Shown here: piece after piece, positions 5,014 to 18,746 of the stretch
How positions within the stretch are numbered: position 1 is the first letter of the stretch
Layout of the letters: each line of letters begins with the position of its first letter
Assembly (NCBI RefSeq): GCF_044324875.1
Contig: NZ_CP172185.1
Reading direction: 5' to 3' (one strand)
DNA: 64,000 nt
Source: Escherichia coli
GTDB taxonomy: Bacteria > Pseudomonadota > Gammaproteobacteria > Enterobacterales > Enterobacteriaceae
The notes under the pieces: generated by a model
The model's input: only the letters and a program-made list of their open reading frames with translations
What the model was told of the DNA's origin: nothing
Database searches by the model: none
Program-made: the position numbers and the translations under genes

Positions 5014-6240
5014 ATGGATAAACTACTTGAGCGATTTTTGAACTACGTGTCTCTGGATACCCAATCAAAGGCAGGGGTGAGACAGGTTCCCAGCACGGAA
5101 GGCCAATGGAAGTTATTGCATCTGCTGAAAGAGCAGCTCGAAGAGATGGGGCTTATCAATGTGACCTTAAGTGAGAAGGGCACTTTGATGGCGACGTTAC
5201 CGGCTAACGTCCCTGGCGATATCCCGGCGATTGGCTTTATTTCTCATGTGGATACCTCACCGGATTGCAGCGGCAAAAATGTGAATCCGCAAATTGTTGA
5301 AAACTATCGCGGTGGCGATATTGCGCTGGGTATCGGCGATGAAGTTTTATCACCGGTTATGTTCCCGGTGCTGCATCAGCTACTGAGTCAGACGCTGATT
5401 ACCACCGATGGTAAAACCTTGTTAGGAGCCGATGACAAAGCAGGTATTGCAGAAATCATGACCGCGCTGGCGGTATTGCAACAGAAAAACATTCCGCATG
5501 GTGATATTCGCGTCGCCTTTACCCCGGATGAAGAAGTGGGCAAAGGGGCGAAACATTTTGATGTTGACGCCTTCGATGCCCGCTGGGCTTACACCGTTGA
5601 TGGTGGTGGCGTAGGCGAACTGGAGTTTGAAAACTTCAACGCTGCGTCGGTCAATATCAAAATTGTAGGCAATAACGTTCACCCAGGCACAGCGAAAGGT
5701 GTAATGGTGAATGCGCTGTCGCTGGCGGCACGTATTCATGCGGAAGTTCCGGCGGATGAAAGCCCGGAAATGACAGAAGGCTATGAAGGTTTCTATCACC
5801 TGGCGAGCATGAAAGGCACCGTTGAACGGGCCGATATGCACTACATCATCCGTGATTTCGACCGTAAACAGTTTGAAGCGCGTAAACGTAAAATGATGGA
5901 GATCGCCAAAAAAGTGGGCAAAGGGTTACATCCTGATTGCTACATTGAATTGGTGATTGAAGACAGTTACTACAATATGCGCGAGAAAGTGGTTGAGCAT
6001 CCGCATATTCTCGATATCGCCCAGCAGGCGATGCGTGACTGCGATATTGAACCGGAACTGAAACCGATCCGCGGCGGTACCGACGGCGCGCAGTTGTCGT
6101 TTATGGGATTACCGTGCCCGAACCTGTTCACTGGCGGTTACAACTATCATGGTAAGCATGAGTTTGTGACTCTGGAAGGTATGGAAAAAGCGGTGCAGGT
6201 GATCGTCCGTATTGCCGAGTTAACGGCGCAACGGAAGTAA
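5014..6240 (+). CDS. pepT: peptidase T (tripeptide aminopeptidase)
   Basis: 408-aa M20 peptidase starting [21 protein letters not shown]. It is divergent from potA as in K-12. Confidence 0.9.
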
Positions 6241-7410: not shown

Positions 7411-7611
7411 GTTAAGCATCCACAGGCTGGTATCTGCAACCGATTATAACGGATGCTTAACGTAATGCGTGAAGTATGGGCATACTTTATCAATTAGTGT
7501 TTTTTGCCGTTTCATAATGTTTCAGGTTGTGCATTATGTTTTTGATTATAAACAAATTTGTGATTTTTCTTGTTCCAGCTTGTTTCACGTTGTAGCCCTT
7601 TGTGCAACGAT

Positions 7612-7637
7612 CGGTGTAGTTAATGGTGTAGTTAATT
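7612..7637. repeat. attL core (26-bp direct repeat)
   Basis: Identical 26-mer at 18721-18746. The flanking 30 bp are weakly similar, including the motif ttgtt(t/c)cacgttgt. Confidence 0.7.
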
Positions 7638-8888
7638 GTGATGACCGGATTCAAAATTATGAGCAGAGCACTTAACAAGCTGAGCGATACACAGCTAAGG
7701 AAAATCAACGGCACACCCGCCCAAAAAACAGCCTTTCTTAATGACGGTGGAAACTTGAGCGTCAGGCATTCAACCAGCGGCCTTTTAACCTGGTATTTCA
7801 CTTACAGGGCCGGAACGGGAAGGGGGGCATCACCGGAACGCATTAAGCTGGGAAATTATCCTGATCTGAGCCTGAAATCAGCCAGGGAAAAAGCCGCCCA
7901 GTGTCGCGCATGGCTGGCTGAGGGGAAAAATCCACGTCATGAGATGAATTACACCGTACAGGAAGCGTTAAAGCCTGTAACGGTTGGCGATGCGCTCACC
8001 TACTGGCTTGAGTCGTACGCAAAGGAAAACCGTGTGGATTATGACCCACTGAAAAAGCGGCTAAATAATCACGTAATACAGCACATTGGCCCTATGCCGC
8101 TGGATAAATGCGAGCTACGGCACTGGCTGGCCTGTTTTGATCGGGTGGCAAAGCAAGCCCCTGTTTCCGCCGGGTTCCTGCTACAGACATGCAAACAGGC
8201 GCTTAAGTTCTGCCGGAAGCGGCGCTATGCAATCAGCAACGTTCTTGATGATATGAGTGTGGCTGACGTTGGGAAAAAACCGGATATAGGCGAACGTGTC
8301 TTAAGTACCAAAGAACTGGGCGAATTATTGCAGGCACTGGACAAAAAAATATTTTCCCCTTACTACGTCGCACTAATCCGCCTCCTGATTGTTTTCGGAT
8401 GCCGGACAGTAGAACTGAGGTTATCGGAGATCGGCGAGTGGGATTTTACCGAAATGCTCTGGACCGTTCCGAAGGAGCACAGCAAAACGAAGGTAGCCAT
8501 ATTCCGGCCCATACCGGAAGCGATACTGCCGTTCGTCACGCAGCTGATGGAGCAGAACAGGCACACGGGCTTATTGCTGGGGGAAGTGAAACAGGAAACC
8601 AGCGTGTCGCAGTACGGCAGATTAGTGCACAGGAGGCTTAAACACCCTCACTGGTCACTGCATGACATCCGGCGCACCTTTACAACGATGCTGAACGATT
8701 TAGGCGTGGATCCTCACGTCGTGGAGCAGCTTACAGGCCACCAGATGCCAGGAATGCAGCGAGTTTATAATCATTCCCGTTATCTGGATGCGAAACGCAA
8801 TGCGCTGGATATGTGGACGGAGCGGTTAGGGATACTGGCGGGAGCACATGAAAACGTAACCACGCTACCAGTAACCAGAAGAAAATAA
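7638..8888 (+). CDS. int: tyrosine site-specific integrase (P4/CP4-57-type)
   Basis: 416 aa. The C-terminal catalytic region reads ...HDIRRTFTTMLNDLGVDPHVVEQLTGHQ...VYNHSRYLD (R..HxxR..Y). It sits immediately inside attL. Confidence 0.85.
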   Translation: MMTGFKIMSRALNKLSDTQLRKINGTPAQKTAFLNDGGNLSVRHSTSGLLTWYFTYRAGTGRGASPERIKLGNYPDLSLKSAREKAAQCRAWLAEGKNPRHEMNYTVQEALKPVTVGDALTYWLESYAKENRVDYDPLKKRLNNHVIQHIGPMPLDKCELRHWLACFDRVAKQAPVSAGFLLQTCKQALKFCRKRRYAISNVLDDMSVADVGKKPDIGERVLSTKELGELLQALDKKIFSPYYVALIRLLIVFGCRTVELRLSEIGEWDFTEMLWTVPKEHSKTKVAIFRPIPEAILPFVTQLMEQNRHTGLLLGEVKQETSVSQYGRLVHRRLKHPHWSLHDIRRTFTTMLNDLGVDPHVVEQLTGHQMPGMQRVYNHSRYLDAKRNALDMWTERLGILAGAHENVTTLPVTRRK

Positions 8889-8936
8889 TTTTTTTCGTGT
8901 TTTTTCAGTATGCGCATACTGGATAAGTGCACAGAT

Positions 8937-8970
8937 ACAACGTGAAACAATAAGCAACAACGTGAAACAA
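8937..8970 (+). promoter_or_regulatory. tandem copies of a 14-bp motif (acaacgtgaaacaa) that may be integrase arm-type sites
   Basis: The same 14-mer occurs in inverted orientation next to attL (7580-7593). It also occurs with one mismatch next to attR (18689-18702). Confidence 0.4.
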
Positions 8971-9262
8971 CCACGAACAAGAGGTCAAAAAGTATACAGA
9001 TTTATAAGTTGCTGATTTTTAATGCTCAACTGGTTTTTTATACATTAGCGAATAACGCTTTAAATAGTGAGAAAAAAGTCATAAAACGAGATTTTATGCC
9101 TTTGCATAATACTGAATTAAAATGATTTTTATTAAAATCACCCCGTTTCTGTAAAATACCCGCCACCAACATTTGCCAACTCTGAATCACCCTGACACAA
9201 TCAGACACATCCCAACGCAATAGAACACGAAATAACTCTTTAAGAAACGAAAGGGGGCAATA

Positions 9263-9451
9263 GTGTTAAGCACTGATCGGTTTATACGTGAAAAAGAATG
9301 CGAAAAGCTAACAGGCCTTAGCCGCTCATGCCGCTACCGCCTGGAAAAGGCCGGACAATTCCCATCACGGCGTAAGCTGGGCGGTCGTTCCGTTGGCTGG
9401 TCTTTATCCGAAGTTCTGGCATGGAAGGAAAGCTGCGAGGCAGTTCACTAA
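9263..9451 (+). CDS. alpA: AlpA-family phage/satellite transcriptional regulator (excisionase-like HTH)
   Basis: 62 aa reading ...EKECEKLTGLSRSCRYRLEKAGQFPSRRKLGGRSVGWSLSEVLAWKE. This is a typical AlpA/MerR-like HTH. Confidence 0.75.
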   Translation: MLSTDRFIREKECEKLTGLSRSCRYRLEKAGQFPSRRKLGGRSVGWSLSEVLAWKESCEAVH

Positions 9452-9777
9452 AAAGACTGGCGGCACACAGCCGCCACCCATCCACTAATACAGAGATTTA
9501 ACCATGAAGACTGGATATACGCCCGAACAGGGGCGGGGCTTCGTTCGGCCTGGTGAAACTGAAAAACAACAAAATCGCGGTTTTTCAGGCATAAAAAAAG
9601 CGGCCCCGATAAGGAGCCGCCTTTCTGAACAATTAACCTACAGCGCAAAAAATGAATCTGAGCAGTGGGATTATATCAACCGTGCAACGAAGCGCCACAA
9701 TTGCCGGATAACGGGCAAAGAAAAGGCCACCTGTCACGGTGGCCAATGTGATCAGTGTGGTGGCTTGCTGGTGGCTA

Positions 9778-9969
9778 TCAACCTTTGGGTTCTATACCGC
9801 GCCGCTTTAGTTCAGCGCGCCCCAACTCTTTAAGCCAGTTGGCTAGGCTTATGCCGTCGCTCTGCGCTTCTTTGTCGAATTGCTCTTTTAGCTCTGGAGA
9901 AATTCGCATTCTGAATTGTGGGGATTGCCCATCACCCTTAGGGCTTTTATCACGTTTGATTGTTGACAA
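9778..9969 (-). CDS. Arc/MetJ-type ribbon-helix-helix repressor, divergent from the main operon
   Basis: 63 aa reading ...RMRISPELKEQFDKEAQSDGISLANWLKELGRAELKR, which is an Arc-like RHH pattern. It is transcribed away from the downstream operon. Confidence 0.55.
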   Translation of the reverse strand: MSTIKRDKSPKGDGQSPQFRMRISPELKEQFDKEAQSDGISLANWLKELGRAELKRRGIEPKG

Positions 9970-10015
9970 GTGGTCACCTATTAAATTAGCCTTTCTATTG
10001 TTAGGTGGTCACCTT
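9968..10015. promoter_or_regulatory. two copies of an aggtgNNcacct-type palindrome (candidate operators) overlapping a ttgaca -35 hexamer
   Basis: aagtggtcacct at 9968-9979 and aggtggtcacct at 10004-10015, 36 bp apart. They lie in the divergent promoter region between the RHH gene and the rightward operon. Confidence 0.4.
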
Positions 10016-10103
10016 AACACGGGGACACTTAAAAAAGCAAAGCCCGAAGGCGCTAGGAACACCAACGGGCTTCTAACCACAAACCGTTATGAGAGGTAGT
10101 TTT

Positions 10104-10301
10104 ATGGCTGTAAGACAGCATACCCCACGACTAGCGCACACACAAACCGCCTTTGTGTGGCGTTTTCTGGCACTGAGTGCCGGAGAATCTCAAATCATCC
10201 ACGTAACCGCCTGGACGGAACGCGAAGCGCGTAGCCGTTGCCCGTCCGGTTGTGTTGCTGTATTCGCCGCCCGTATTCGTCAGGGGGTGTACCATGATTA
10301 A
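10104..10301 (+). CDS. Icd-like small protein (resembles the host cell-division-inhibitor Icd-like proteins of P4-type elements)
   Basis: ...FVWRFLALSAGESQIIHVTAWTEREARSRCPSGCVAVFAARIRQG matches the YVW.F.A.S...ERxAR...AAR pattern seen after alpA in enterobacterial satellites. Confidence 0.4.
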   Translation: MAVRQHTPRLAHTQTAFVWRFLALSAGESQIIHVTAWTEREARSRCPSGCVAVFAARIRQGVYHD

Positions 10302-10662
10302 CCTGTCACTTACCGATCTTAACCGCGTTCAGTTTCGTGAGAAATTTACCGGACAGCTACTCGTCAATGTGGAGAACGGGCGCATAGTGCGTAATTATCA
10401 CCTGCCGGATGGTGCAATTGCCGGAAGCGTTGAAGCATTGCTGGAACTGGCGGAACGTGCGCGACTGATTAAGCCGTCAACGAGCCATCACGATGATGAT
10501 CTGCATTTTACCGGATGTATGGTGAGTCACTACGAAAACGGCGTCGAGGTATCCTGCGAACGGCTGCGTGATGATTGCTGTTTCGGCACACTGCCGGAAT
10601 TTATCGAATTGCTGACCAGTTGCGGATATCAGGTTATTCAGGGGGTGCGCCATGTGCAATAA
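10294..10662 (+). CDS. hypothetical protein (satellite early region)
   Basis: 123-aa ORF from MINLSLTDL. Its start overlaps the previous gene and its stop overlaps the next gene. No recognisable motif. Confidence 0.4.
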   Translation: MINLSLTDLNRVQFREKFTGQLLVNVENGRIVRNYHLPDGAIAGSVEALLELAERARLIKPSTSHHDDDLHFTGCMVSHYENGVEVSCERLRDDCCFGTLPEFIELLTSCGYQVIQGVRHVQ

Positions 10663-11107
10663 CATCCGTCCGGACGCAGCAGGCGAAGCCATCATAACGC
10701 TAATGCACGCGCTGATTGATATTTCATGCACGGCAGCAACCGCAGAAAAACACATTACCAGAGAGCCGGAATATACAGGGGCAATAATCCCGCATTCGCT
10801 GGCCTACGCACAGCTAACCGCTGATATGGCGCTGAATGAGGCTAAAGCCATCCTGATTGCTGATTGTGAAAATGGGGGGGGGGTTATGCGTGATGATCGT
10901 TTTAATTCCCTGAAACAGGAATTTTCCGGCGTTCCTGATAATGCGGCTGATGCGCTTTCGTCAATATCTGAAATTATGCGGGTGGCTTTTTTCTTTCTTT
11001 GCACTGATGAGCACAGGGATACAGGGCTAAATATTCTTGATATCGCCGCTAATTATGCTGATTTCGTAACGGAAACTGTTTTAAGAAAAACGACGGACGG
11101 GGATTAA
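10652..11107 (+). CDS. hypothetical protein
   Basis: 151-aa ORF translationally coupled to its neighbours. No recognisable motif. Confidence 0.45.
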   Translation: MCNNIRPDAAGEAIITLMHALIDISCTAATAEKHITREPEYTGAIIPHSLAYAQLTADMALNEAKAILIADCENGGGVMRDDRFNSLKQEFSGVPDNAADALSSISEIMRVAFFFLCTDEHRDTGLNILDIAANYADFVTETVLRKTTDGD

Positions 11108-11108
11108 T

Positions 11109-11342
11109 ATGCGTGATATTTACCACGAAACAATAGACCGCGCATTTCTTGCACTTTCTCACAGTGAAAATATGTTGGAAATATTGCGCATATGTCTTGA
11201 AACGCTTGGAGATAATGAACGTGATAAACAGAAATCAATGATTGTCACGGCATTAATAACGCTTCTTGAGCCTGTAATAAATGAGTTGCAGGAAATAGAG
11301 ACATTACACGACCAGTATAAAGCGCCCCACACCGGAGAATAA
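11109..11342 (+). CDS. hypothetical protein
   Basis: 77-aa ORF with tight spacing inside the operon. Confidence 0.4.
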   Translation: MRDIYHETIDRAFLALSHSENMLEILRICLETLGDNERDKQKSMIVTALITLLEPVINELQEIETLHDQYKAPHTGE

Positions 11343-11347
11343 AAAAC

Positions 11348-11635
11348 ATGAAAAATAAAAATTCTGGCGTTAATGCCAGCGGCCCCGCTCGTCCTGAAAT
11401 CCGTCCCGGCGATATTTTCCGTGATAACTACGGCGGCACGGTAATGATTAAGGGCGTGGAAGAACGGCGCGTAACCTACCGCCGTGATGGCTACGAATAT
11501 GACTGCGTTATGCCTGTTTATCAGTTCCGGCGTGATTTCACGCTGGTGGGCCATCGTAAAGCCGTTAATCAGAAACGTGCTGCAAGTTATATCCGCAAAA
11601 TCCGTGAAATGCTGGTCGCAGGGGGTAAGAAATGA
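11348..11635 (+). CDS. hypothetical protein
   Basis: 95-aa ORF overlapping the rep start (ATGA). Confidence 0.45.
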   Translation: MKNKNSGVNASGPARPEIRPGDIFRDNYGGTVMIKGVEERRVTYRRDGYEYDCVMPVYQFRRDFTLVGHRKAVNQKRAASYIRKIREMLVAGGKK

Positions 11636-13038
11636 AACTTGCACCGAACGTAAAACTGTTACCGAAAGATAAACACACTGAGGCGGTTATTTTTGCGGGT
11701 GATAATGCTCACTCCTTTGCAGAACATTACATGATTGCACAGGCCAAAAAAGCAGGCGATCCCATCCCTCCGGTTTACCTGGGCCGTTATCAGTTAAGCG
11801 AACTGGACAACTTACAGATTGTTGATGAAGGACGATACAGGGCAAAGGTCATACGCGCCGGAAACCTGGACGATATGCAGATGCTGACCATTGCCACAAA
11901 ACTGGCGATCGCCGGAGTCCAGGAGGCGCGCCTACTTTCTGAAAATTTCGAACTGCTGGAGGACTGGAGCGACCAGCTACCACGACTACGGGAAACATGG
12001 GAGAGAGGGGAAAGCCTGGTCATGAATGGCGGAAAGCGAAAAATCACACTTCCCATCTCATGGGGTTCTGAGGGATTCGATGCGCAGCAAAGCTACGTCA
12101 TTAAGGGGCTTATTCCGGCTGAGTCATTATGCAGCACCTACGGGGCCAGCGGTTCTTATAAATCGTTCCTCGCCATTTCCTGGTCGTGCCATGTTGCCAC
12201 AGGTATGGCATGGGGAGGCCGCAGGGTAAGTAAGGGTGCGGTTATCTATATCGCTGGCGAAGGCAGCATGGGCGTAAAACGCCGCGTTAAGGCGTGGGAG
12301 ATAACCCACGACAAGGTGGTTACAGATTTGTGCATCATTAACGCGCCTGTTTTCCCTGCATCGCCTGACTATGTGGAGCAGGTTATCAGGACTGCCGGAC
12401 TTGTTAAGAGCAGAACGGGCGAAAATGTGCGGCTGATTGTGATCGACACGCTGGCCCGTTGCTTTGGTGGGAATGATGAAAATGATTCCCGTGATATGGG
12501 CGCATTTATCCAGGGGTGTGACGCGATAAAGCAGGCCACAGGGGCCACGGTGCTGGTGGTTCACCATTCCGGCAAGGATGAAACAAAGGGGGCGCGTGGT
12601 TCCAGTGCATTCCGTGCCGCGCTTGATGCAGAGTACCGAATCAGCCGCGAAAATTCAGACGTTACAGCACTGGTCGCAGCATGTACGAAGATGAAGGACG
12701 CAGAGGAGCCAAAAGAGAGCGCATACGACCTTAAAAGCGTGGAGGTGTTCACCGATACAGATGGCGAAGAAATTGTGTCCATGGTGGTGATTGACGTTCC
12801 CCGCGCCCCTGCTGAACTGGAGCGCATCGAGGAGGCAGGCAACAAGACGGAAAACCATACCGCGCTATGGGGGTGCATCCGTTCACGCACACAGAACGGC
12901 GACAAGTGCACGATCCCGCTGTTACGTGATGACATGAAACGGCTTGGGTATGACGTGAAAAATATGCGGCGATGGTTAGCCAAACTGGAAAAAGACGCCG
13001 TGATTTACATTGATGGTGATGATGTAGGACCACTGTAA
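11632..13038 (+). CDS. replication initiator / RepA-like RecA-fold NTPase (AAA_25-type)
   Basis: 468 aa with Walker A YGASGSYKSFLAI, Walker B LIVIDTLARCF and VLVVHHSGKDETKG. These are typical of RepA/AAA_25 helicase-like satellite and plasmid replication proteins. The iteron array follows immediately. Confidence 0.75.
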   Translation: MKLAPNVKLLPKDKHTEAVIFAGDNAHSFAEHYMIAQAKKAGDPIPPVYLGRYQLSELDNLQIVDEGRYRAKVIRAGNLDDMQMLTIATKLAIAGVQEARLLSENFELLEDWSDQLPRLRETWERGESLVMNGGKRKITLPISWGSEGFDAQQSYVIKGLIPAESLCSTYGASGSYKSFLAISWSCHVATGMAWGGRRVSKGAVIYIAGEGSMGVKRRVKAWEITHDKVVTDLCIINAPVFPASPDYVEQVIRTAGLVKSRTGENVRLIVIDTLARCFGGNDENDSRDMGAFIQGCDAIKQATGATVLVVHHSGKDETKGARGSSAFRAALDAEYRISRENSDVTALVAACTKMKDAEEPKESAYDLKSVEVFTDTDGEEIVSMVVIDVPRAPAELERIEEAGNKTENHTALWGCIRSRTQNGDKCTIPLLRDDMKRLGYDVKNMRRWLAKLEKDAVIYIDGDDVGPL

Positions 13039-13237
13039 AAAGTGAGTAGTAAAAGTGAGTAATGGTGAGGTTTTTACAAAATATTAACACAATTACTCAC
13101 TTTCTCACCTGTATACATGCTCAAAAGTGAGCAGTGAAAAAACACTTATGAAACATGCACATATAAAACACAAAAATCTCAAGTGAGACGAAGTGAGACG
13201 CTTTAAAAAGTGAGTAGTAAAAGTGAGAGATGGTGAG
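13037..13237. repeat. iteron-type replication origin (multiple agtgag-based repeats)
   Basis: The 33-mer aaaaagtgagtagtaaaagtgag(t/a)(a/g)atggtgag occurs at 13037-13069 and 13205-13237. Shorter copies are aggtgagaaagtgagtaa (inverted, 13093-13110), aaaagtgagcagtgaaaa and aagtgagacgaagtgagacg, all in AT-rich surroundings. Confidence 0.6.
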
Positions 13238-13239
13238 CA

Positions 13240-13608
13240 ATGAATAAAAACCGAACAGCAGGACAAAATACCGAAGGTAAATTTATGAACACTGAAATTG
13301 AAACACTGAGCATATCAACTGCCCTTCCTGGCTGGTGGGCTAAGTTCAAAGACGACGACGGCACGGAATGGTATAGCCCAATTGCTGCATGGGCGCTTTG
13401 TGATATCCACCATTTCGGCACCGGAGATACTTACCGCGAAATCTTACCCGTGCTGACCAGTGAGCTGGGCATGAGTCCGCATAGTCCTGATGAGGGAATG
13501 TGCGAGTGCCTTTATCTGCCGGATAAGAAGTTTGTTCACTGTGGTGAATCGATGGTATTTGCCTGGTATCCGGTTAACGACAGCAGCAATAGCGGTACTC
13601 TGGAGTAA
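13240..13608 (+). CDS. hypothetical protein
   Basis: 122-aa ORF starting right after the iterons. Confidence 0.45.
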   Translation: MNKNRTAGQNTEGKFMNTEIETLSISTALPGWWAKFKDDDGTEWYSPIAAWALCDIHHFGTGDTYREILPVLTSELGMSPHSPDEGMCECLYLPDKKFVHCGESMVFAWYPVNDSSNSGTLE

Positions 13609-13611
13609 ATC

Positions 13612-13854
13612 ATGAAGGTAAACCACAAAAAGACAGATCACCGCGCCATTGACCTTACAGAGCACTGGCTGAGGGTGGCGATAAAAATCATCGACCGCAA
13701 CACGGGGGAAGGATACGCGAAAGCACATCCCGAACTGATAAGTGCATTCATGACCACAGCGGCGGCAAACTTTGCCACGCTGACAGAGCGGGATATTGCC
13801 GAAGCAGAACAGGTAACAACCATCAACGTTAAAACCAGTGAGGTGGAATCATGA
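13612..13854 (+). CDS. hypothetical protein
   Basis: 80-aa ORF whose stop overlaps the ssb start. Confidence 0.4.
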   Translation: MKVNHKKTDHRAIDLTEHWLRVAIKIIDRNTGEGYAKAHPELISAFMTTAAANFATLTERDIAEAEQVTTINVKTSEVES

Positions 13855-14261
13855 CAGCACAGATAGCGGCTTACGGGCGGCTGGTGGACGACCCGCAGGT
13901 AAAACAGACCAGTAAGGGTACACCGATGACGCTGGCGCGTATGGCGGTATCTTTACCATGCGGCCAGGCACAGGACGGACAGGCGACGTTATGGTTATCG
14001 GTCATCGCATTTGGCAAACAGGCCGACTTTCTGGCTAAACATCAAAAAGGCGACGTTGCCAGCGTATCCGGCACGATGCAGGTCAGCCAGTGGACCGGAC
14101 AGAACGGGGAAACGCGGCAGGGTTATCAGGTTATTGCAGACAGCGTAATCAGTGCCCGTGCGGCACGTCCTGGCGGGAACAGACGCAAAACCACAGGCAC
14201 ACAGGGTAATCAGCCACCAGCGGGAGGCGATGACCCTTACGGTGATGATATTCCGTTCTGA
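13851..14261 (+). CDS. ssb: single-stranded DNA-binding protein (phage-type SSB)
   Basis: 136 aa with an OB-fold-like N-terminus, a Gly/Pro/Gln-rich linker and the canonical acidic C-terminal tail ...DDPYGDDIPF. Confidence 0.7.
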   Translation: MTAQIAAYGRLVDDPQVKQTSKGTPMTLARMAVSLPCGQAQDGQATLWLSVIAFGKQADFLAKHQKGDVASVSGTMQVSQWTGQNGETRQGYQVIADSVISARAARPGGNRRKTTGTQGNQPPAGGDDPYGDDIPF

Positions 14262-14271
14262 GGGGGTGACG

Positions 14272-14544
14272 ATGGTACATGACCGCATAGCGGAGGAACT
14301 CGAGGCAAAAGGATTTTACCGGAGGGCGGCGGCGCGATGGGGTGAAGTTATGAGGCTGGTGAGCACTGACAAGGAGCGCGAACAGGTGGCAATGCGACGG
14401 CTGGAATGTTCCCTGAAGGCACAGAGGCCACCGGAGCCGCCGGATGATTTAGGCGCTCTGAAAAGGTCAGTTAATCGCACTGAAAAACAAATGGGGATAG
14501 CTGGTATTGGCAAAGCAATATGGCGCAACTACCCGCAGAAGTGA
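14272..14544 (+). CDS. PerC-family-like transcriptional activator
   Basis: MVHDRIAEELEAKGFYRRAAARWGEVM... The N-terminus matches the A.ELE..G.xRRAA.RW motif of PerC-type regulators. The longer ORF 14152..14544 overlaps ssb, so the start at 14272 is preferred. Confidence 0.5.
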   Translation: MVHDRIAEELEAKGFYRRAAARWGEVMRLVSTDKEREQVAMRRLECSLKAQRPPEPPDDLGALKRSVNRTEKQMGIAGIGKAIWRNYPQK

Positions 14545-14551
14545 GCACACA

Positions 14552-14622
14552 GCCGGAGCAATCCGGCTTTTTTACGCCTAAAAAAAGCCCGATAAGGTCA
14601 AAGGGGGCTTATCGGGCTTTTG
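14552..14622 (+). terminator. tandem rho-independent terminators ending the early/replication operon
   Basis: agccggagcaatccggcttttttac and aaaaagcccgataaggtcaaagggggcttatcgggcttttgt. Confidence 0.6.
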
Positions 14623-14784
14623 TAGAGGAGGTTTTTTATGGTGCACTGGCACACATGATCGGGATAATCATTTCATAATTTGCAACATAACTCAATATTG
14701 TTGCGCAAAATGCAATCATGATTATAATCAGGACTGGATGAACATCCAGTTATGATTTTTTAAGTCAAAGAGGAATTTCTGACT

Positions 14785-14991
14785 ATGGCAGAAGAGAAAA
14801 AAGGCGGGGTGACGGTCTACATAAGCCCCGACATCGTGGAGGCGCTCAAGGAACGCCACCAGCAGAATGTAAAAGCAGGCATTGCGGCAGGACTTGATCC
14901 GCTGGCGATGGTTGAGCCGTCAACAGGCTGGCAGGTGCGTACCTATTTACGTGCGGCGCTGGGTATCAATCAGGTTCACGGAGGTGAATAA
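14785..14991 (+). CDS. hypothetical small protein, first gene of the capsid operon
   Basis: 68-aa ORF with an RBS (aagaggaa). Its stop overlaps the MCP start (TAATG). It follows an AT-rich promoter-like region (14630-14784) that contains the partial palindrome ttgcaacat...ttgttgcgcaaaatgcaa. Confidence 0.4.
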   Translation: MAEEKKGGVTVYISPDIVEALKERHQQNVKAGIAAGLDPLAMVEPSTGWQVRTYLRAALGINQVHGGE

Positions 14992-16046
14992 TGACAGGCA
15001 AAGCAAAGGCACTTACAACTAACCAGCTTTTCGCGTACCTGAATCGCGGGGATATTTCGGAATATAAATTTAGTCCGCTGTTTACCACGCTGTTTTTCCC
15101 GAACGTGGCGACCTTCAACACCCAAAACATCATGCTGGACACCCTGGACATTGAAGAGGTTACGATGTCAGCGTTCTGTTCTCCTATGGTGGGTAGTCAG
15201 GTCCAGCGCGATAAAGGGTACGAAACCAGCACGATTAAACCAGGCTACATGAAGCCAAAGCACGAAATCGATCCAACAAAGACCATCATGCGCATGGATG
15301 GAGAAGATCCGGCACAGCTTAACGATCCAACTTACCGCCGTATGCGCCTGATTACTGGCAACATGCGCCGCCAGATAAACGCCATTAAGGCGCGCGTGGA
15401 ATGGCTGGCGGTGAATGCGGTAACGACCGGAAAAAACATCATTGAGGGCGAAGGCATAGAACGCTATGAAATCGACTGGAAAATACCGGAAAACTGCATC
15501 ATACAGCAGGCCAGTGGTAAAAAATGGTCCCAGCAGGATAAAGACATGCACGACCCAATCTATGACATCGAGCTTTATGCTGATCAGGCAGGTTGCCCCG
15601 CCAACGTCATGATTATGGGCGGTGAGGTATGGCGCACATTACGCAGCTTTAAAAAATTCCGTGAACTGTACGATCTTTCCCGTGGATCAGAATCCGCCGC
15701 CGAGCTGGCCTGTAAAAACCTGGGCGAAGTGGTGAGCTTTAAAGGCTATCTTGGTGATCTGGCCCTTATCGTCTATTCCGGCAAATACACTGACAGCGAC
15801 GGGACCGAAAAATATTTCCTTGAGCCTGATTTGCTGGTCCTGGGTAACACCAACAATAAAGGGCTGGTGGCATATGGTGCGATTATGGATCAGGAAGCGG
15901 TAAGAACGGGCGCAACGCAAAACATGTACTACCCGAAAAACTGGATTGAGGACGGCGATCCGGCGATTGAGTACGTGCAGACGCACAGCGCACCGCAGCC
16001 TGTACCGGCAGATATTCGCAAATTTGTTACCGTCAAAATTGCTTAA
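14991..16046 (+). CDS. major capsid protein, lambda gpE family
   Basis: 351 aa, alignable over its full length with lambda gpE. Shared blocks include F.PLF..LFF, KPGYMKPKHEIDP (lambda KPGYVKPKHEVNP), EDPAQLNDPTYRRMR (lambda EDPQNLADPAYRRRR), YSGKY, YPKNW..GDPA and SAP. Confidence 0.85.
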   Translation: MTGKAKALTTNQLFAYLNRGDISEYKFSPLFTTLFFPNVATFNTQNIMLDTLDIEEVTMSAFCSPMVGSQVQRDKGYETSTIKPGYMKPKHEIDPTKTIMRMDGEDPAQLNDPTYRRMRLITGNMRRQINAIKARVEWLAVNAVTTGKNIIEGEGIERYEIDWKIPENCIIQQASGKKWSQQDKDMHDPIYDIELYADQAGCPANVMIMGGEVWRTLRSFKKFRELYDLSRGSESAAELACKNLGEVVSFKGYLGDLALIVYSGKYTDSDGTEKYFLEPDLLVLGNTNNKGLVAYGAIMDQEAVRTGATQNMYYPKNWIEDGDPAIEYVQTHSAPQPVPADIRKFVTVKIA

Positions 16047-16057
16047 CGGGGGATTCT

Positions 16058-16393
16058 ATGGACGCTCCATACATTGAGTTATTTTCAGGCAGCCAACAGG
16101 TATCCACGACGCTGGTACATTTTGCCGCTGATGCTGGCGTTATTCAGGAATTTACCCCGCTGATGCTGGCAGACAATGGCGAGTTTAAGCCGTGGGATGG
16201 TAAGGAATCTGGCAAGGCTGTTTATCTGACCTCGTACCCTGTGGACACGTCAAAGCAGAAATCAGCACAGTGTTACAAGACGGGGATATTCAATATTGCC
16301 GCCGTTAACTGGCCTGACAGCGTCGACACCGATGCGAAAAAATGCGCCGCCTTTGCGGGTTCCGGCGTATCCGTTCAGCCGCTGGCCCGATAA
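16058..16393 (+). CDS. head decoration protein, lambda gpD-like
   Basis: 111 aa, the same size as gpD. ...TPLMLADNGEFKPWDG... resembles lambda TPLMLDTSSRKLVAWDG. ...YKTGIFNIAAVNWPDSVDTDAKKCAAFAGSGVSV resembles lambda [35 protein letters not shown]. Confidence 0.7.
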   Translation: MDAPYIELFSGSQQVSTTLVHFAADAGVIQEFTPLMLADNGEFKPWDGKESGKAVYLTSYPVDTSKQKSAQCYKTGIFNIAAVNWPDSVDTDAKKCAAFAGSGVSVQPLAR

Positions 16394-16460
16394 GCAGGGG
16401 GAACGATGGCACAAACCAGGGCGATGACGGCGACATCTATCGCATACTGAAAACCATCTG

Positions 16461-16493
16461 AGACAAGGCCGGAGAAATCCGGCTTTTTTTGCG
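16461..16493 (+). terminator. rho-independent terminator after the capsid genes
   Basis: gacaaggccggagaaatccggctttttttgcgg. Confidence 0.6.
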
Positions 16494-16521
16494 GGTCCTT
16501 TCCGGCATGTGGACCCGTTAC

Positions 16522-16690
16522 GGGGCGTCGACCTCGCACGTTTTCGCTATTTATGAAAATTTTCCGGGAAAAAGCATGTCAGTTCTTCTTGTTATTAACA
16601 TATTGTTTTTAAAGAAATAACTATCAAGAAAGAAACGACATCATAATGATGAAAAATCTGTTTTTTTTGGCATTTCATGTCGTAACTGAT
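16522..16690. other. lambda-type cos site: cosN (cohesive-end sequence) plus cosB-like R3/I/R2/R1 sites upstream of the Nu1 homologue
   Basis: ggggcgtcgacctcgcacgttttcgctatttatgaaaattttccgg is near-identical to the lambda left end GGGCGGCGACCTCGCGGGTTTTCGCTATTTATGAAAATTTTCCGG. Downstream lie gttcttcttgttattaac (R3-like), aagaaagaaacgacatc (R2-like) and catgtcgtaactg (R1-like), separated by A/T-rich spacers. Confidence 0.7.
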
Positions 16691-16710
16691 TTTTGATAAG
16701 GAATTGCTGA

Positions 16711-17295
16711 ATGAATGTTAATAAAAAGAGGCTTGCCGAAATTTTTAACGTGGACCCGCGGACGATTGAACGCTGGCAGTCACAGGGGCTTCCTTGCGTC
16801 TCCAAAGGCAGTAAGGGCATTGAATCTGTATTTGATACTGCCATGGCAATTCAGTGGTATGCGCGGAGGGAAACTGATATCGAAAACGAAAAGCTCCGCA
16901 AAGAACTGGACGATTTGCGTGCGGCAGCGGAGTCAGATTTACAACCCGGCACCATTGACTATGAACGCTATCGGCTCACAAAAGCGCAGGCAGATGCGCA
17001 GGAACTTAAAAACGAGCGCGATCGCGGTGACGTGATTGATACAGAGTTTTGCATGTACGCGCTTTCAAAACTGGCGAGTCAGATTTCATCAATCATGGAC
17101 AGCCTCCCGCTTACTATGCAAAGGAGCTTCCCACAGATGACCCCCGCCATGCTGGATGGCCTGAAAAAAGAAGTTGTCAGAGCCTGTAACGCATGCACAA
17201 AACTTGATGAAAACATCCCGCGAATGCTGTCCGATTATCTGATGGAAACTACCGGAAATGTGCCTGATAAGTTTCAGCCGGATAAAGACAAGTAA
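16711..17295 (+). CDS. terminase small subunit, lambda Nu1 family
   Basis: [30 protein letters not shown]...[48 protein letters not shown]... closely parallels lambda Nu1 (MEVNKKQLADIFGASIRTIQNWQEQGMPV...[48 protein letters not shown]). A C-terminal segment like the gpA-interacting region is present. Confidence 0.85.
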
Positions 17296-17554
17296 CGTAG
17301 TGCACAATGACCGAAGCCAGTTTACTGACTGGCTTTCAGCGTTGCGCTGGTGGGCGTTATGCGTCAGTGATAAACGTCTCCAATATTACTGATATTCGAC
17401 ATCCCCACCTCTCCACACCAGCTCGAATATCATTTTTCTCATTAAAAACAGGACATTAAAAACTGGTCAGATGTCCCATAAAAAGCCAAATGGGACAGGT
17501 CAAAAGCTTTTTTTGCAGTAATTTTCAATAGGTTACTTGATGTGGTGGTGTCCC

Positions 17555-17935
17555 ATGAAAATTCAAAAATCAGCCGTTTTCCGCGATGCTCCCGCCCCGT
17601 GGCAGGGCACCCCACAAGGAGGACCCGCCATCACTATGGAGGACATGACCATGACCGAGACCGAAGCGCTCGGGATAATCCGCAGTATTACCGGAATCAG
17701 CCAGCAGGCTGGCGAACAGGAGGCCACGCAGCCGGACAGCGTGATCGCCGAAAATTACGTGCGTGTTGTTGCTGATGTAATGCGCCGTGATGGTATTGAG
17801 CTTAACGGCGTGGATATGCGCGACATACGAATCAGAGTACTAGAGTTGCTGGCATACCGTCGACGCGTGGCGATGTATCAGGAGAGCGCGAAAAACACTT
17901 ATCAGTGGAAGAAGCCGGAGCGGTTACGGCGGTAA
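17555..17935 (+). CDS. hypothetical protein downstream of terS
   Basis: About 126 aa from MKIQKSAVF. It is Asp/Glu/Arg-rich with no recognisable motif, and occupies the slot where lambda would encode gpA. Confidence 0.4.
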   Translation: MKIQKSAVFRDAPAPWQGTPQGGPAITMEDMTMTETEALGIIRSITGISQQAGEQEATQPDSVIAENYVRVVADVMRRDGIELNGVDMRDIRIRVLELLAYRRRVAMYQESAKNTYQWKKPERLRR

Positions 17936-17939
17936 CTGG

Positions 17940-18265
17940 TTGATATTTTCGAAATTCGCCAGCGGCGAACATCGGGGAAACCAGCCTAACCAGTTGATTC
18001 TTTCGGAAACAGCCATTGGCGGAATCCGGCGCGGTAACTTGCTGATATTCCCGATAACGCAAAATTGCGCTGGCTACATCCCTCACATCTGAGGACTGAT
18101 AATGCGACATTGCGCTGGCTGGCAAAGTGCAAAATTGCACGATGGCCTAACCCATTGATTATTTCGAAAACCTGCAATGCAGGAAATCGGGGAAGTAAGC
18201 CTAAGCTATTGATTCTTTCGGAAACCTCAATTTGAGGAAGTCGGCGCGGTAACTCGCTGAACTTA
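17940..18265. repeat. two ~110-bp direct repeat units with conserved flanks and variable internal palindromes
   Basis: Unit 1 spans 17940-18050 and unit 2 spans 18152-18262. Each contains ttgat(a/t)tttcgaaa, then a perfect palindrome (ttcgccagcggcgaa or cctgcaatgcagg), then atcggggaa..agcctaa..ttgattctttcggaaac, then a second palindrome (gccattggc or cctcaatttgagg), then ..cggcgcggtaact.gctga. The spacer between units carries more palindromes (gcgcaaaattgcgc, cctcacatctgagg, gtgcaaaattgcac). Confidence 0.6.
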
Positions 18266-18720
18266 AAGCAAACCTCAAAATTGAGCTGGCTGAATAATCA
18301 TTATGATTACGCAGATGATTAAGGAATGACCGAAGGCGGAAATTCGCCTGTGGTTGATGGGGGAGTTGCAGATCTGCAACTCGACCATGAAACTACGGAA
18401 ACTACCCGTAGTTTGGGTAGTAAGAGTAACACCCAGATTTTGGGACTTACTCGTGATACCCAAATTTGGAGTATCGGTGGCAACCATAACGACTTTCGTT
18501 ACGGTTGATGCTTTTACCCCATTGGGGGAAAGGTATTACGATAATCATAACACCTACCGAACAGGTAAAGCCCACCAGCCTGATTGACATTTAACCGGAA
18601 AAAAAGCCAGGTAGCCCCGTTATGTGGATCCCCATATCGACAGCAACGCCCCCTTAAAATTACCCGCCTTTATATTTCTTGTGCCTATTTGTTCCACGTT
18701 GTTTCATACAGTGCGCCGAA

Positions 18721-18746
18721 CGGTGTAGTTAATGGTGTAGTTAATT
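18721..18746. repeat. attR core (26-bp direct repeat)
   Basis: Identical to 7612-7637. Confidence 0.7.

Follow-up and report, generated by a model that had tools for sequence, protein, structure and literature searches.

Several phage satellites, viz. P4, the cos-type Staphylococcus aureus pathogenicity islands (cos-SaPIs) and EcCICFT073, which possesses the sites cos1 and cos2, are known to carry cos sites of their helper phages (PMC6092414, PMC6739421). In this work we describe, from a 64,000-nucleotide stretch of an Escherichia coli chromosome (referred to as the window), an array of palindromes that lies at the attR end of an 11-kb island located at 7590–18745 beside phoQ-phoP-purB. This array is non-coding, it starts at the stop codon (17933) of the last gene of the island, denoted orf94, and it extends over ~670 bp to position ~18600. 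It resembles the carriage of helper cos in that it would likewise consist of helper cis-sites capturing helper proteins, and some phage-inducible chromosomal islands (PICIs) hold a phiP27/SfV-type cos in the same 3' region. However, the sites in the array are candidate sites for regulators and for the integration host factor (IHF) rather than terminase sites, and the cos of this island is situated elsewhere. Conceptually, what is new is that regulatory sites would here be added to the helper cis-sites, such as cos, that satellites are already known to carry, and no description of such an array was found in the satellite literature that was searched.

An arrangement similar to that of the array is present within some phage genes. 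The Roi protein of phage HK022 reportedly binds to a site within its own gene, to which an IHF site is closely linked, with IHF stabilising the complex (work attributed to Clerget and Boccard, in J Bacteriol of 1996, and cited in PMC3430580), and related rha genes of phi80 and P22 are said to have been described by Henthorn and Friedman in 1995. The array is like the intragenic Roi plus IHF site of HK022 roi and of the rha genes in its layout, with an 11-bp spacer between the IHF consensus and a palindrome of 11–13 bp that is centred on A-N-T, and it shows up to 94% identity to such sites over ~48 bp. The phage site is present in one copy, within the coding sequence (nt 131–165), and serves the product of its own gene, whereas the array contains up to five copies of differing specificity, which are non-coding, mixed with unrelated palindromes, and carried by a satellite without Rha, Roi or Ant. 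Annotation of the island genes together with a family search revealed no Rha, Ant or KilA protein encoded by this PICI.

The BIME-1/RIP (RIB) elements likewise combine an IHF site and palindromes, and the multiple DnaA boxes of datA titrate or inactivate DnaA. Like the array, these are non-coding clusters of an IHF site plus palindromes or of regulator boxes, but the array shows no similarity to repetitive extragenic palindromic (REP) sequences or DnaA boxes, and its palindromes are heterogeneous, phage-derived and located on a mobile satellite. The P4 CI RNA and the P22 sar RNA, lastly, are small structured antisense regulators acting in satellite or phage immunity, and the target of sar is an antirepressor gene. 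Although the array is also antisense to ant and roi genes, it differs from these RNAs in lacking a C4-type Rfam match, a defining promoter or terminator, cis targets within the island and a wobble signature.

Roi-type units and their counterparts in phage genes

The array was compared by BLAST with 50,697 phage records. The only genes that it matched were those annotated as roi, 'DNA-binding protein Roi', Rha or anti-repressor Ant, and all of the matches were antisense to the + strand. The segment 18197–18244 showed 93.8% identity (E=1e-10), in antisense orientation, to nt ~120–170 of the roi gene from H-19B, HK620 and many Shiga toxin (Stx) phages, while 18146–18185 matched the roi gene of CP-1639, the palindrome of unit 4 (Table 1) being identical in the roi genes of both CP-1639 and HK022. 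A match to 17994–18029 was found in an 'Ant'/Rha-type gene of phiP27, in which the palindrome of unit 2 is present unchanged, and 17939–17975 (unit 1) resembles, again in antisense, a Rha-type 'DNA-binding protein' gene of Stx2_EH2201. Three of the four unit palindromes recur unchanged in the phage partner, and the homology breaks off sharply where the ~48-bp modules end. In all of these roi/rha genes the IHF consensus is located at gene nt 153–165 and the palindrome at nt ~131, inside the region coding for the Phage_pRha domain; in HK022 roi, for example, these are AATCAATGATTTA and CTGCATTGCAG, starting at gene positions 153 and 131, respectively. The homology to the intragenic Roi/Rha operator extends over 17929–18254, and within 18340–18545 it is confined to 18503–18532, where it is degenerate. 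A 52-nt unit was detected in 933 of the 5426 complete E. coli genomes, either inside prophage coding sequences annotated as 'antirepressor KilAC' or 'Rha family' or in non-coding DNA; the roi-type unit alone, in PICI arrays and prophage antirepressor genes, matches ~17% of these genomes. These results suggest that several modules of the array are copies of palindromic sites from the 5' part of Rha/Roi genes, of Ant genes with the P22_AR_N domain and possibly of KilA-N genes.

The layout of the units is TAA-N4-(T/C)TGAT-W, followed by an 11-bp spacer and then by an 11–15-bp palindrome centred on A-N-T. When 23 distinct PICI units were aligned with five phage genes, the columns without any variation were T18 and exactly those of TAA....TGAT, i.e., of the IHF consensus WATCAANNNNTTR in reverse complement. 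The N4 within this consensus varies in the PICI units and differs from the GTTA of the phage genes, which is constrained by coding. Invariant IHF positions accompanied by a drifting N4 are what IHF binding would be expected to leave, and not complementarity. Of the 13 perfect matches to the IHF consensus in the entire window, four are in the array, on one strand, at 17933, 17987, 18148 and 18202, and the TAA of the first of these is the stop codon of orf94. Inside 18340–18545, only the half-site TTGAT (at 18354 and 18503) was found and not the full consensus.

The palindromes of the units covary. Double changes were observed in five of the six pairs, 91.7% of the cells were paired, and the covariation score of 0.466 (0.217 in shuffles) was reached by none of 500 shuffles, while G.U pairs were seen in only one of 120 cells. 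Among the 29 distinct array hairpins with one internal mismatch, this was G.T in nine cases, A.C in eight and of another kind in 12, showing no strand-specific wobble bias, and the array palindromes run on through their 'loops', which are 1–4 nt in length. As regards the features generally expected of a structured RNA, compensatory changes are strong and G.U pairs rare, and the part of the array designated module X is too conserved to be informative. The phage roi/rha palindromes (L182, L264, L265, L266 and L267; nt ~131–165) also differ between alleles, and the encoded peptide changes with the palindrome allele (LPQIEV, LPALQV, KPPMAV and SAPMAN), while the outer-helix positions of the phage genes covary, e.g., CGG...TCCGAA versus CAA...TTCGAA. 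These observations suggest that a nucleic-acid element inside the roi/rha open reading frame (ORF) is under selection.

The array as a whole contains ~17 perfect stems and the RNA-fold z-score of 17933–18600 is -6.8 on both strands. The homologous regions from more than 50 distinct PICI loci form an extreme mosaic, in which blocks of 35–130 nt recur in varying order, with recurrent breakpoints near 18035, 18075, 18098, 18210, 18250, 18351, 18480 and 18541. Such blocks are present behind orf94 both in PICIs with a lambda-type cos (L001, L003, L004) and in those that form capsids and encode portal, protease and TerS/TerL proteins of the HK97/P27 type (L002, L005), and they are found at att sites beside phoQ, clpS and tqsA-mdtJ. 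The modules are hence independent of terminase type and att site, which argues against a role in packaging or integration. A profile of the repeat unit identified, in 57 distinct arrays, 82 copies on the + strand and one on the - strand; one to five roi-type units were present in 37 of these arrays, and the window carries five (17929–18254).

At the same 3' position, other PICIs (L017, 2783–3330; also L009, L011, L019, L021 and L003) possess other cis-sites. These include five GTGACA repeats with ~11-bp spacing, six iterons (GCGGGTTAT/ATAACCCGC) that surround a core rich in AT, and a segment that is 89–92% identical to the annotated cos-site of phiP27 and to the genome ends of SfV, SfII, SfIV and ST64B. 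Because cos, iterons and GTGACA repeats are held there by other PICIs, the 3' region of these islands appears to be a depot for cis-acting DNA sites.

Table 1. Coordinates of the array modules and of other features of the island within the window.
Feature	Position	Strand	Description
Unit 1	17929–17982	+	IHF consensus TAACTGGTTGATA (17933–17945) and palindrome TTCGCC-AGC-GGCGAA (17955–17969)
Unit 2	17983–18038	+	IHF consensus TAACCAGTTGATT (17987–17999) and palindrome CAGCCATTGGCGG (18010–18022)
c-type unit and palindromes	18030–18147	+	TAACTTGCTGATA and CGCAAAATTGCG (18058–18069)
Further palindromes	within 18030–18147	+	CCTCA-CATC-TGAGG (18081–18094), GCGACATTGCGC, GTGCAAAATTGCAC (18127–18140)
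Unit 4	18141–18200	+	IHF consensus TAACCCATTGATT (18148–18160) and palindrome CCTGCAATGCAGG (18171–18183)
Unit 5	18196–18254	+	IHF consensus TAAGCTATTGATT (18202–18214) and palindrome CCTCAATTTGAGG (18225–18237)
c-type unit and hairpins	18251–18350	+	TAACTCGCTGAAC and CTCAAAATTGAG (18274–18285)
Further hairpins	within 18251–18350	+	TAATCAT-T-ATGATTA (18295–18309), AGGCG-GAAATT-CGCCT (18334–18349)
Module X	18351–18480	+	20-bp palindrome, exclusive hairpins 18390–18421, hairpin 18419–18451, GATACCC-N7-GGGTATC
ant-like hairpin	18481–18507	+	CAACC-A-TAACGA-CTT-TCGTTA-C-GGTTG
Degenerate roi-type unit	18503–18532	+	TTGAT and two-tier hairpin CTTT(TA)CCCCA-T-TGGGG(G)AAAG
Putative ori	13033–13240		AT-rich (34% GC), directly after primase-helicase gene; iterons AAAAGTGAGTAGTAAAA; AAAAGTGAG(T/C)AGT(A/G)AAA and AAGTGAGACG repeats
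Lambda-like cosQ-cosN-cosB (GGGTCCTTTCCGG...ACGGGGCGTCGACCTCGCACGTTTTCGCTATTTATGAAAATTTTCCGG)	16490–16700		Immediately upstream of Nu1-like gene (16711–17295)
orf94, conserved 94-aa hypothetical protein	17651–17935	+	Last gene before the array
Chi (CCACCAGC read on + strand)	18572–18579	-	Conserved at the junction of array and attP arm
attP arm	18600–18745		Palindrome ATG(T/G)GGATCCCCAT (18622–18635); att core 18722–18745; array boundary, outside the array

The hairpin cluster at 18340–18545

The initial annotation of this DNA had noted a dense cluster of stem-loops at 18340–18545, just inside attR and not covered by any significant ORF, and it had suggested a small regulatory RNA resembling the P4 CI immunity RNA or, alternatively, a structured enhancer of recombination or packaging. 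All of the hairpins that it listed are present. The 16-bp palindrome GTTGCAGATCTGCAAC (18365–18380) lies inside a perfect 20-bp palindrome GAGTTGCAGATCTGCAACTC (18363–18382), and the two hairpins described as mutually exclusive are indeed so: the stem AAACTACGG/CCGTAGTTT at 18390–18414 (9 bp with a 7-nt loop) overlaps the stem ACTACCC/GGGTAGT at 18401–18421 (7 bp with a 7-nt loop) and, as RNA, they are nearly isoenergetic (-11.5 and -10.4 kcal/mol, respectively). These are followed by a two-tier hairpin at 18419–18451, in which CCCA/TGGG is nested inside AGTAAG/CTTACT, by GATACCCAAATTTGGAGTATC (18455–18475), which is imperfect in the window and in relatives reads GATACCC-N7-GGGTATC, by the hairpin CAACCATAACGA...TCGTTACGGTTG (18481–18507), and by CCCCATTGGGG (18517–18527), where an outer stem CTTT/AAAG extends the whole hairpin to 18511–18532. 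The density of these structures exceeds chance, as there are seven distinct perfect stems of at least 5 bp, compared with 1.6±1.3 (maximum 5) in 300 dinucleotide-preserving shuffles, and the minimum free energy of the RNA is -89.0 kcal/mol (z=-8.9) for the + strand and -75.7 kcal/mol (z=-8.1) for the - strand.

The placement just inside attR is also correct, since the cluster lies 180–400 nt inside it, with the copy of the att repeat at 18722–18745, and the overlapping ORFs of 54–77 aa have no Pfam match. Within 18340–18545, codon periodicity was absent from all three candidate frames (40 variable sites in 40 variants, distributed 11/14/15 over the codon positions), and a tblastn search with a 70-aa minus-strand ORF from module X gave no match. 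A protein-coding gene at the cluster was consequently rejected, there being no Pfam match, no tblastn match and no codon-position bias. On the - strand, an open frame of ~85 codons (18275–18535; ...LSPNGVKASTVTKVVMVATDTPNLG...ELQICNSP...) was also noted, for which neither homologues nor a codon-position signal were found; it seems to have arisen incidentally from the joining of antisense pieces of genes. The initial description thus holds with respect to a conserved, non-coding and structured cluster of cis-elements at the attR end of a mobile island, but its boundaries were too narrow: 18340–18545 is real as a cluster, but it constitutes only the last third of the hairpin-rich array 17933–18600. 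Its hairpins are most likely not an RNA switch, and we read them as palindromes of DNA.

Much of the cluster corresponds to module X, which travels between PICIs as one block and is ~95% conserved among 40 variants, exceeding the conservation of the adjacent orf94 (74–91% amino-acid identity). In GATACCC-N7-GGGTATC, the arms are kept while the loop sequence varies freely. The exclusive hairpins arise from two 9-nt direct repeats, one of which is missing from some copies of the module that are intact in other respects, and a common C-to-T variant, AAATTACGG, keeps the first of these hairpins by means of a G.U pair on the + strand. Module X is present twice, ~434 bp apart, in some PICI contigs (L093, L105, L120 and L142). 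Its palindrome GTTGCAGATCTGCAAC was also observed in two diverged KilA-N genes (L097, 5335–6108; L101, 46–789), in which it encodes LQICNS, and in an unrelated viral contig (L118, ~5900–5990) that contains three tandem operator-like copies, GTTGCAG(A/T)TCTGCAAC, spaced ~26 bp apart. A link between the module X palindrome and KilA-N genes is tentative because chance matches of this length are to be expected in a collection of that size.

Distal to module X, the segment 18481–18507 is homologous, in antisense, to a hairpin-forming segment of Stx-phage ant that codes for ...STITEIVMVA... in the P22_AR_N domain. The identity to ant is 84%, with a weak E-value (258 records), and a copy in another PICI (L010) is 93.5% identical. 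In the adjoining 18503–18532, the palindrome CCCCATTGGGG is replaced in relatives by CCGCCATTGGTGG or by TCGTCCG-GCATT-CGGACGA.

Possible roles of the array and competing explanations

The reading that we favour, tentatively and with considerable doubt, is that the array is a landing pad or decoy at the DNA level for IHF and for helper regulators of the antirepressor family, i.e., Roi/Rha and probably Ant and KilA types. We infer from the sequence that proteins would bind to the array and that such binding would be of consequence to the helper or the satellite. In the presence of an active helper phage, IHF and the phage DNA-binding proteins of the Roi/Rha/Ant type would load onto the array of the replicating satellite. 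The array could in this manner titrate these regulators away from the autoregulatory sites of the phage itself; alternatively, the loaded array could act as a signal of helper presence or as a nucleoprotein roadblock beside attP-int. A wider proposal, which must be regarded as possible rather than probable, is that the region behind orf94 in both cos-type and capsid-forming E. coli PICIs is an evolvable 'operator library' of intragenic sites, each with an IHF site plus a palindrome, that were captured from lambdoid phages by gene conversion and belong to many different regulators of the antirepressor family (Roi/Rha, Ant, KilA); with it, the satellite would bind the regulators of any helper that happens to be present and so sense or sponge them. 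If so, such a library would be a record of helper exposure at the DNA level, similar to a CRISPR array in its logic but not in its mechanism, and phage genes of the antirepressor family would generally autoregulate through palindromes in their own N-terminal coding sequence. The manner in which Gram-negative PICIs sense and manipulate their helpers is largely unexplained beyond Rpp and cos, and the role of the Roi/Rha/Ant family and its dependence upon IHF have been a loose end since the 1990s, for which the array would give a testable handle. At present, the cassette comprised of orf94 and the array is either unannotated or annotated as 'hypothetical protein'.

A number of observations weigh against a landing pad or decoy. 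No roi-type unit is present in 20 of the 57 arrays. The 82 of 83 units that share one orientation, antisense to the phage genes, show a regularity not required of a pure DNA decoy, although gene conversion through the conserved flanks could preserve it. The + strand of 18340–18545 folds better than the - strand by 13 kcal/mol and the outer helix of the units depends upon T.G pairs. For module X, neither an IHF consensus nor a phage homologue was found in the collections searched, and this module, which makes up most of 18340–18545, is assigned to the array of binding sites by association only. Its resemblance to KilA-N genes consists of a palindrome of 16–20 bp, and by our own estimate ~13 exact 16-mer matches are expected by chance in the viral collection. 

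Some of these observations are those expected if the array instead acts as RNA. In one such explanation, which we consider unlikely though a serious rival, it is an array of antisense RNAs, made either as the 3' untranslated region of the late operon or from a promoter upstream of orf94, in which each module is complementary to 35–48 nt of a helper mRNA, so that roi, rha and ant mRNAs are silenced or destabilised in a multi-target analogue of the control of ant by P22 sar. The orientation of the units (82 of 83), the antisense position of every phage match relative to the + strand, on which all genes of the PICI lie, the better folding of the + strand RNA from 18340–18545 (-89.0 versus -75.7 kcal/mol), the outer-helix T.G pairs, which work only on the + strand, and the lack of a terminator between orf94 and the array are all consistent with it, and for phage Gally there is a report of antisense transcription across the Q-roi region (PMC9928086). 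However, N4 has diverged from the phage sequences while TAA and TGAT are invariant, as fits IHF binding and not complementarity; the palindrome pairs are almost purely Watson-Crick (one G.U in 120 cells) with no + strand excess of wobble (9 versus 8); the loops of 1–4 nt are themselves palindromic; module X lacks a phage target; and no promoter or terminator delimits a small RNA. A very unlikely alternative is a transcript-end element similar to REP or BIME, which would shield the late-operon mRNA against 3' exonucleases or, as an insulator together with IHF, block read-through from this operon into attP-int in the excised circle and into the convergent phoQ in the prophage. The array does start at the stop codon of the last + strand gene of the operon, between it and att/int/phoQ, its IHF sites and palindromes resemble the architecture of BIME-1/RIP elements, and the fold z-scores are strong, but a stabiliser leaves unexplained that the individual palindromes are copies of different roi/ant alleles of phages; G.U pairs are not enriched, there is no similarity to REP, and ~17 stems over 670 bp are excessive for this purpose. 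The regulator originally proposed, whether a P4 CI-type riboregulator acting in cis or in trans or an attenuator in which the two exclusive hairpins switch termination, is scarcely credible. The overlapping hairpins are real and nearly isoenergetic, and the C-to-T variant retains the first of them, but no Rfam family, C4/CI included, reached its gathering score in the cluster, where matches at E<=10 were only noise (manA at 15.9 bits against a gathering score of 55.2, K_chan_RES and TMV_UPD-PK1). Pairing of the seqA/seqC kind finds no support either, since only three direct or inverted 10-mer matches connect 18340–18545 with the rest of the island (4.3 expected). The supposed terminator/antiterminator switch fails in that no U tract follows any hairpin (the 12 nt next to the two alternative pairings being GAGTAACACCCA) and no terminator-like site exists in 18340–18545. 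Moreover, some copies lack the first 9-mer repeat, no + strand gene is found downstream before att, and the island is a PICI.

Among explanations at the DNA level, it is quite unlikely that the array is recombination debris, i.e., scars left by repeated exchanges of PICIs with lambdoid prophages, through gene conversion and through recombination that was illegitimate or relied on short homology, with hairpins that were inherited from the phage genes and have no function in the island. The extreme mosaic with its recurrent breakpoints, the variation in the number of units from zero to five, the Chi or Chi-like sequences at several junctions, the many modules without an identifiable partner and the quite different content at the same place in other PICIs would be accounted for in this way. 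However, of a roi gene of ~720 bp, only one segment of ~48 bp has been captured, repeatedly, from at least four different alleles; the IHF-consensus positions are invariant in a non-coding context while their neighbours drift; palindromy survives changes that are specific for PICIs, e.g., TTCGCCAGCGGCGAA in place of the phage TTCGCCATTGGCGCA; and module X (~95%) is more conserved than orf94. An accessory of cos or attP, in which sites for terminase or for integrase/IHF/Xis enhance packaging or recombination, is highly improbable. IHF sites are classical in cosB and in attP arms, the array adjoins the attP arm, and a phiP27/SfV-type cos is present in the same region of other PICIs; against this, the island has a complete lambda-like cos at 16490–16700, the modules are common to PICIs with Nu1-type and P27/HK97-type terminases and with att at phoQ, clpS and tqsA-mdtJ, islands sharing one att site carry different units or none, and the array is 150–800 bp from the core, beyond the usual length of an arm. 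The enhancer of packaging or recombination suggested initially is thus not retained in that form, with cos at 16490–16700, the att core at 18722–18745 and the modules spread across packaging types and att sites, but the cis-acting role at the DNA level that it implied is favoured. Several other candidates were rejected. For an array of tRNA- or tmRNA-like elements or of anticodon stem-loop mimics, ARAGORN gave none in the window and the loops are of 1–4 nt. Mimicry of lambda ori iterons was considered from the likeness to iterons of the TCCCTCAAAACGAGGGA type, but the direct matches went to roi/ant genes instead, and the ori of the island itself is excluded by the iterons at 13033–13240 beside the primase gene. 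The repeats of a type III toxin-antitoxin RNA, a CRISPR-like array, an integron attC and REP sequences were dismissed in view of the lack of a partner gene or matching repeat architecture, and a CsrA sponge because the GGA count, by eye, is near expectation.

Other features of the island

The island is a PICI similar to EcCICFT073 and not a P4-like satellite. It is bounded by the direct repeat GGTGTAGTTAATGGTGTAGTTAAT (7613–7636 and 18722–18745), and the prototype PICI EcCICFT073 is found at the same site beside phoQ with the same gene order. Its proteins include a tyrosine integrase, DUF4222, an AAA_25 primase-helicase and SSB and, in the late part, a lambda-type major capsid protein (E), a decoration protein (D), a Nu1-like small terminase and the conserved 94-aa protein. 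A P4-like host of the array, which would have Sid/Psu/Delta, the alpha primase and a P2-type cos, is ruled out by the lambda E/D capsid, the Nu1-like gene, the lambda-type cos, AAA_25 and DUF4222. The iteron stretch that follows the primase-helicase gene presumably is the ori of the island. In the cos region, cosN is GGGCGTCGACCT (16523–16534), one base different from that of lambda and with lambda-like flanks, while the cosB part has diverged; a lambda-type cos (cosN GGGCGGCGACCT) had no match within 17900–18700. As the ori is placed at 13033–13240, cos at 16490–16700 and att at 18722–18745, all three are accounted for outside the array.

In the attP arm, the palindrome ATGTGGATCCCCAT (18618–18639), which in most relatives is a perfect 14-mer, ATGGGGATCCCCAT, is kept in PICIs with different arrays and may be a site for Int, Xis or AlpA. 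Ten Chi octamers are present in the island, on the + strand at 9767, 11542, 12552, 13331, 13880, 15863 and 17346 and on the - strand at 14214, 14856 and 18572; seven of the ten are co-oriented. By our own estimate, ten in 11 kb exceeds the average for E. coli several-fold. Module X is directly preceded by a Chi (GCTGGTGG) in most other PICIs, and a number of module junctions have ...GGTGG at their end.

The protein encoded by orf94 has 948 homologous clusters, none with a Pfam domain. Its predicted model (pLDDT 72) has three helices with a basic WKKPERLRR tail and shows no informative fold match. In a species-wide scan, the gene was almost confined to Escherichia/Shigella, at a single locus, and it always precedes the array, in cos-PICIs and capsid-forming PICIs alike. 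In EcCICFT073, among the post-ori genes that were individually cloned, only c1503 inhibited lambda (PMC6739421). The gap of 355 nt between the Nu1-like gene and orf94 (17296–17650) contains a Chi, a GTCCCAT...ATGGGAC hairpin and a AAAAGCTTTTTTT motif, and orf94 together with the array may be a separate transcription unit. Outside the island, the C0299 small RNA (Rfam RF00119, 107.7 bits) at 49954–50032, which is unrelated to the cluster, is the sole Rfam match at gathering score in the window.

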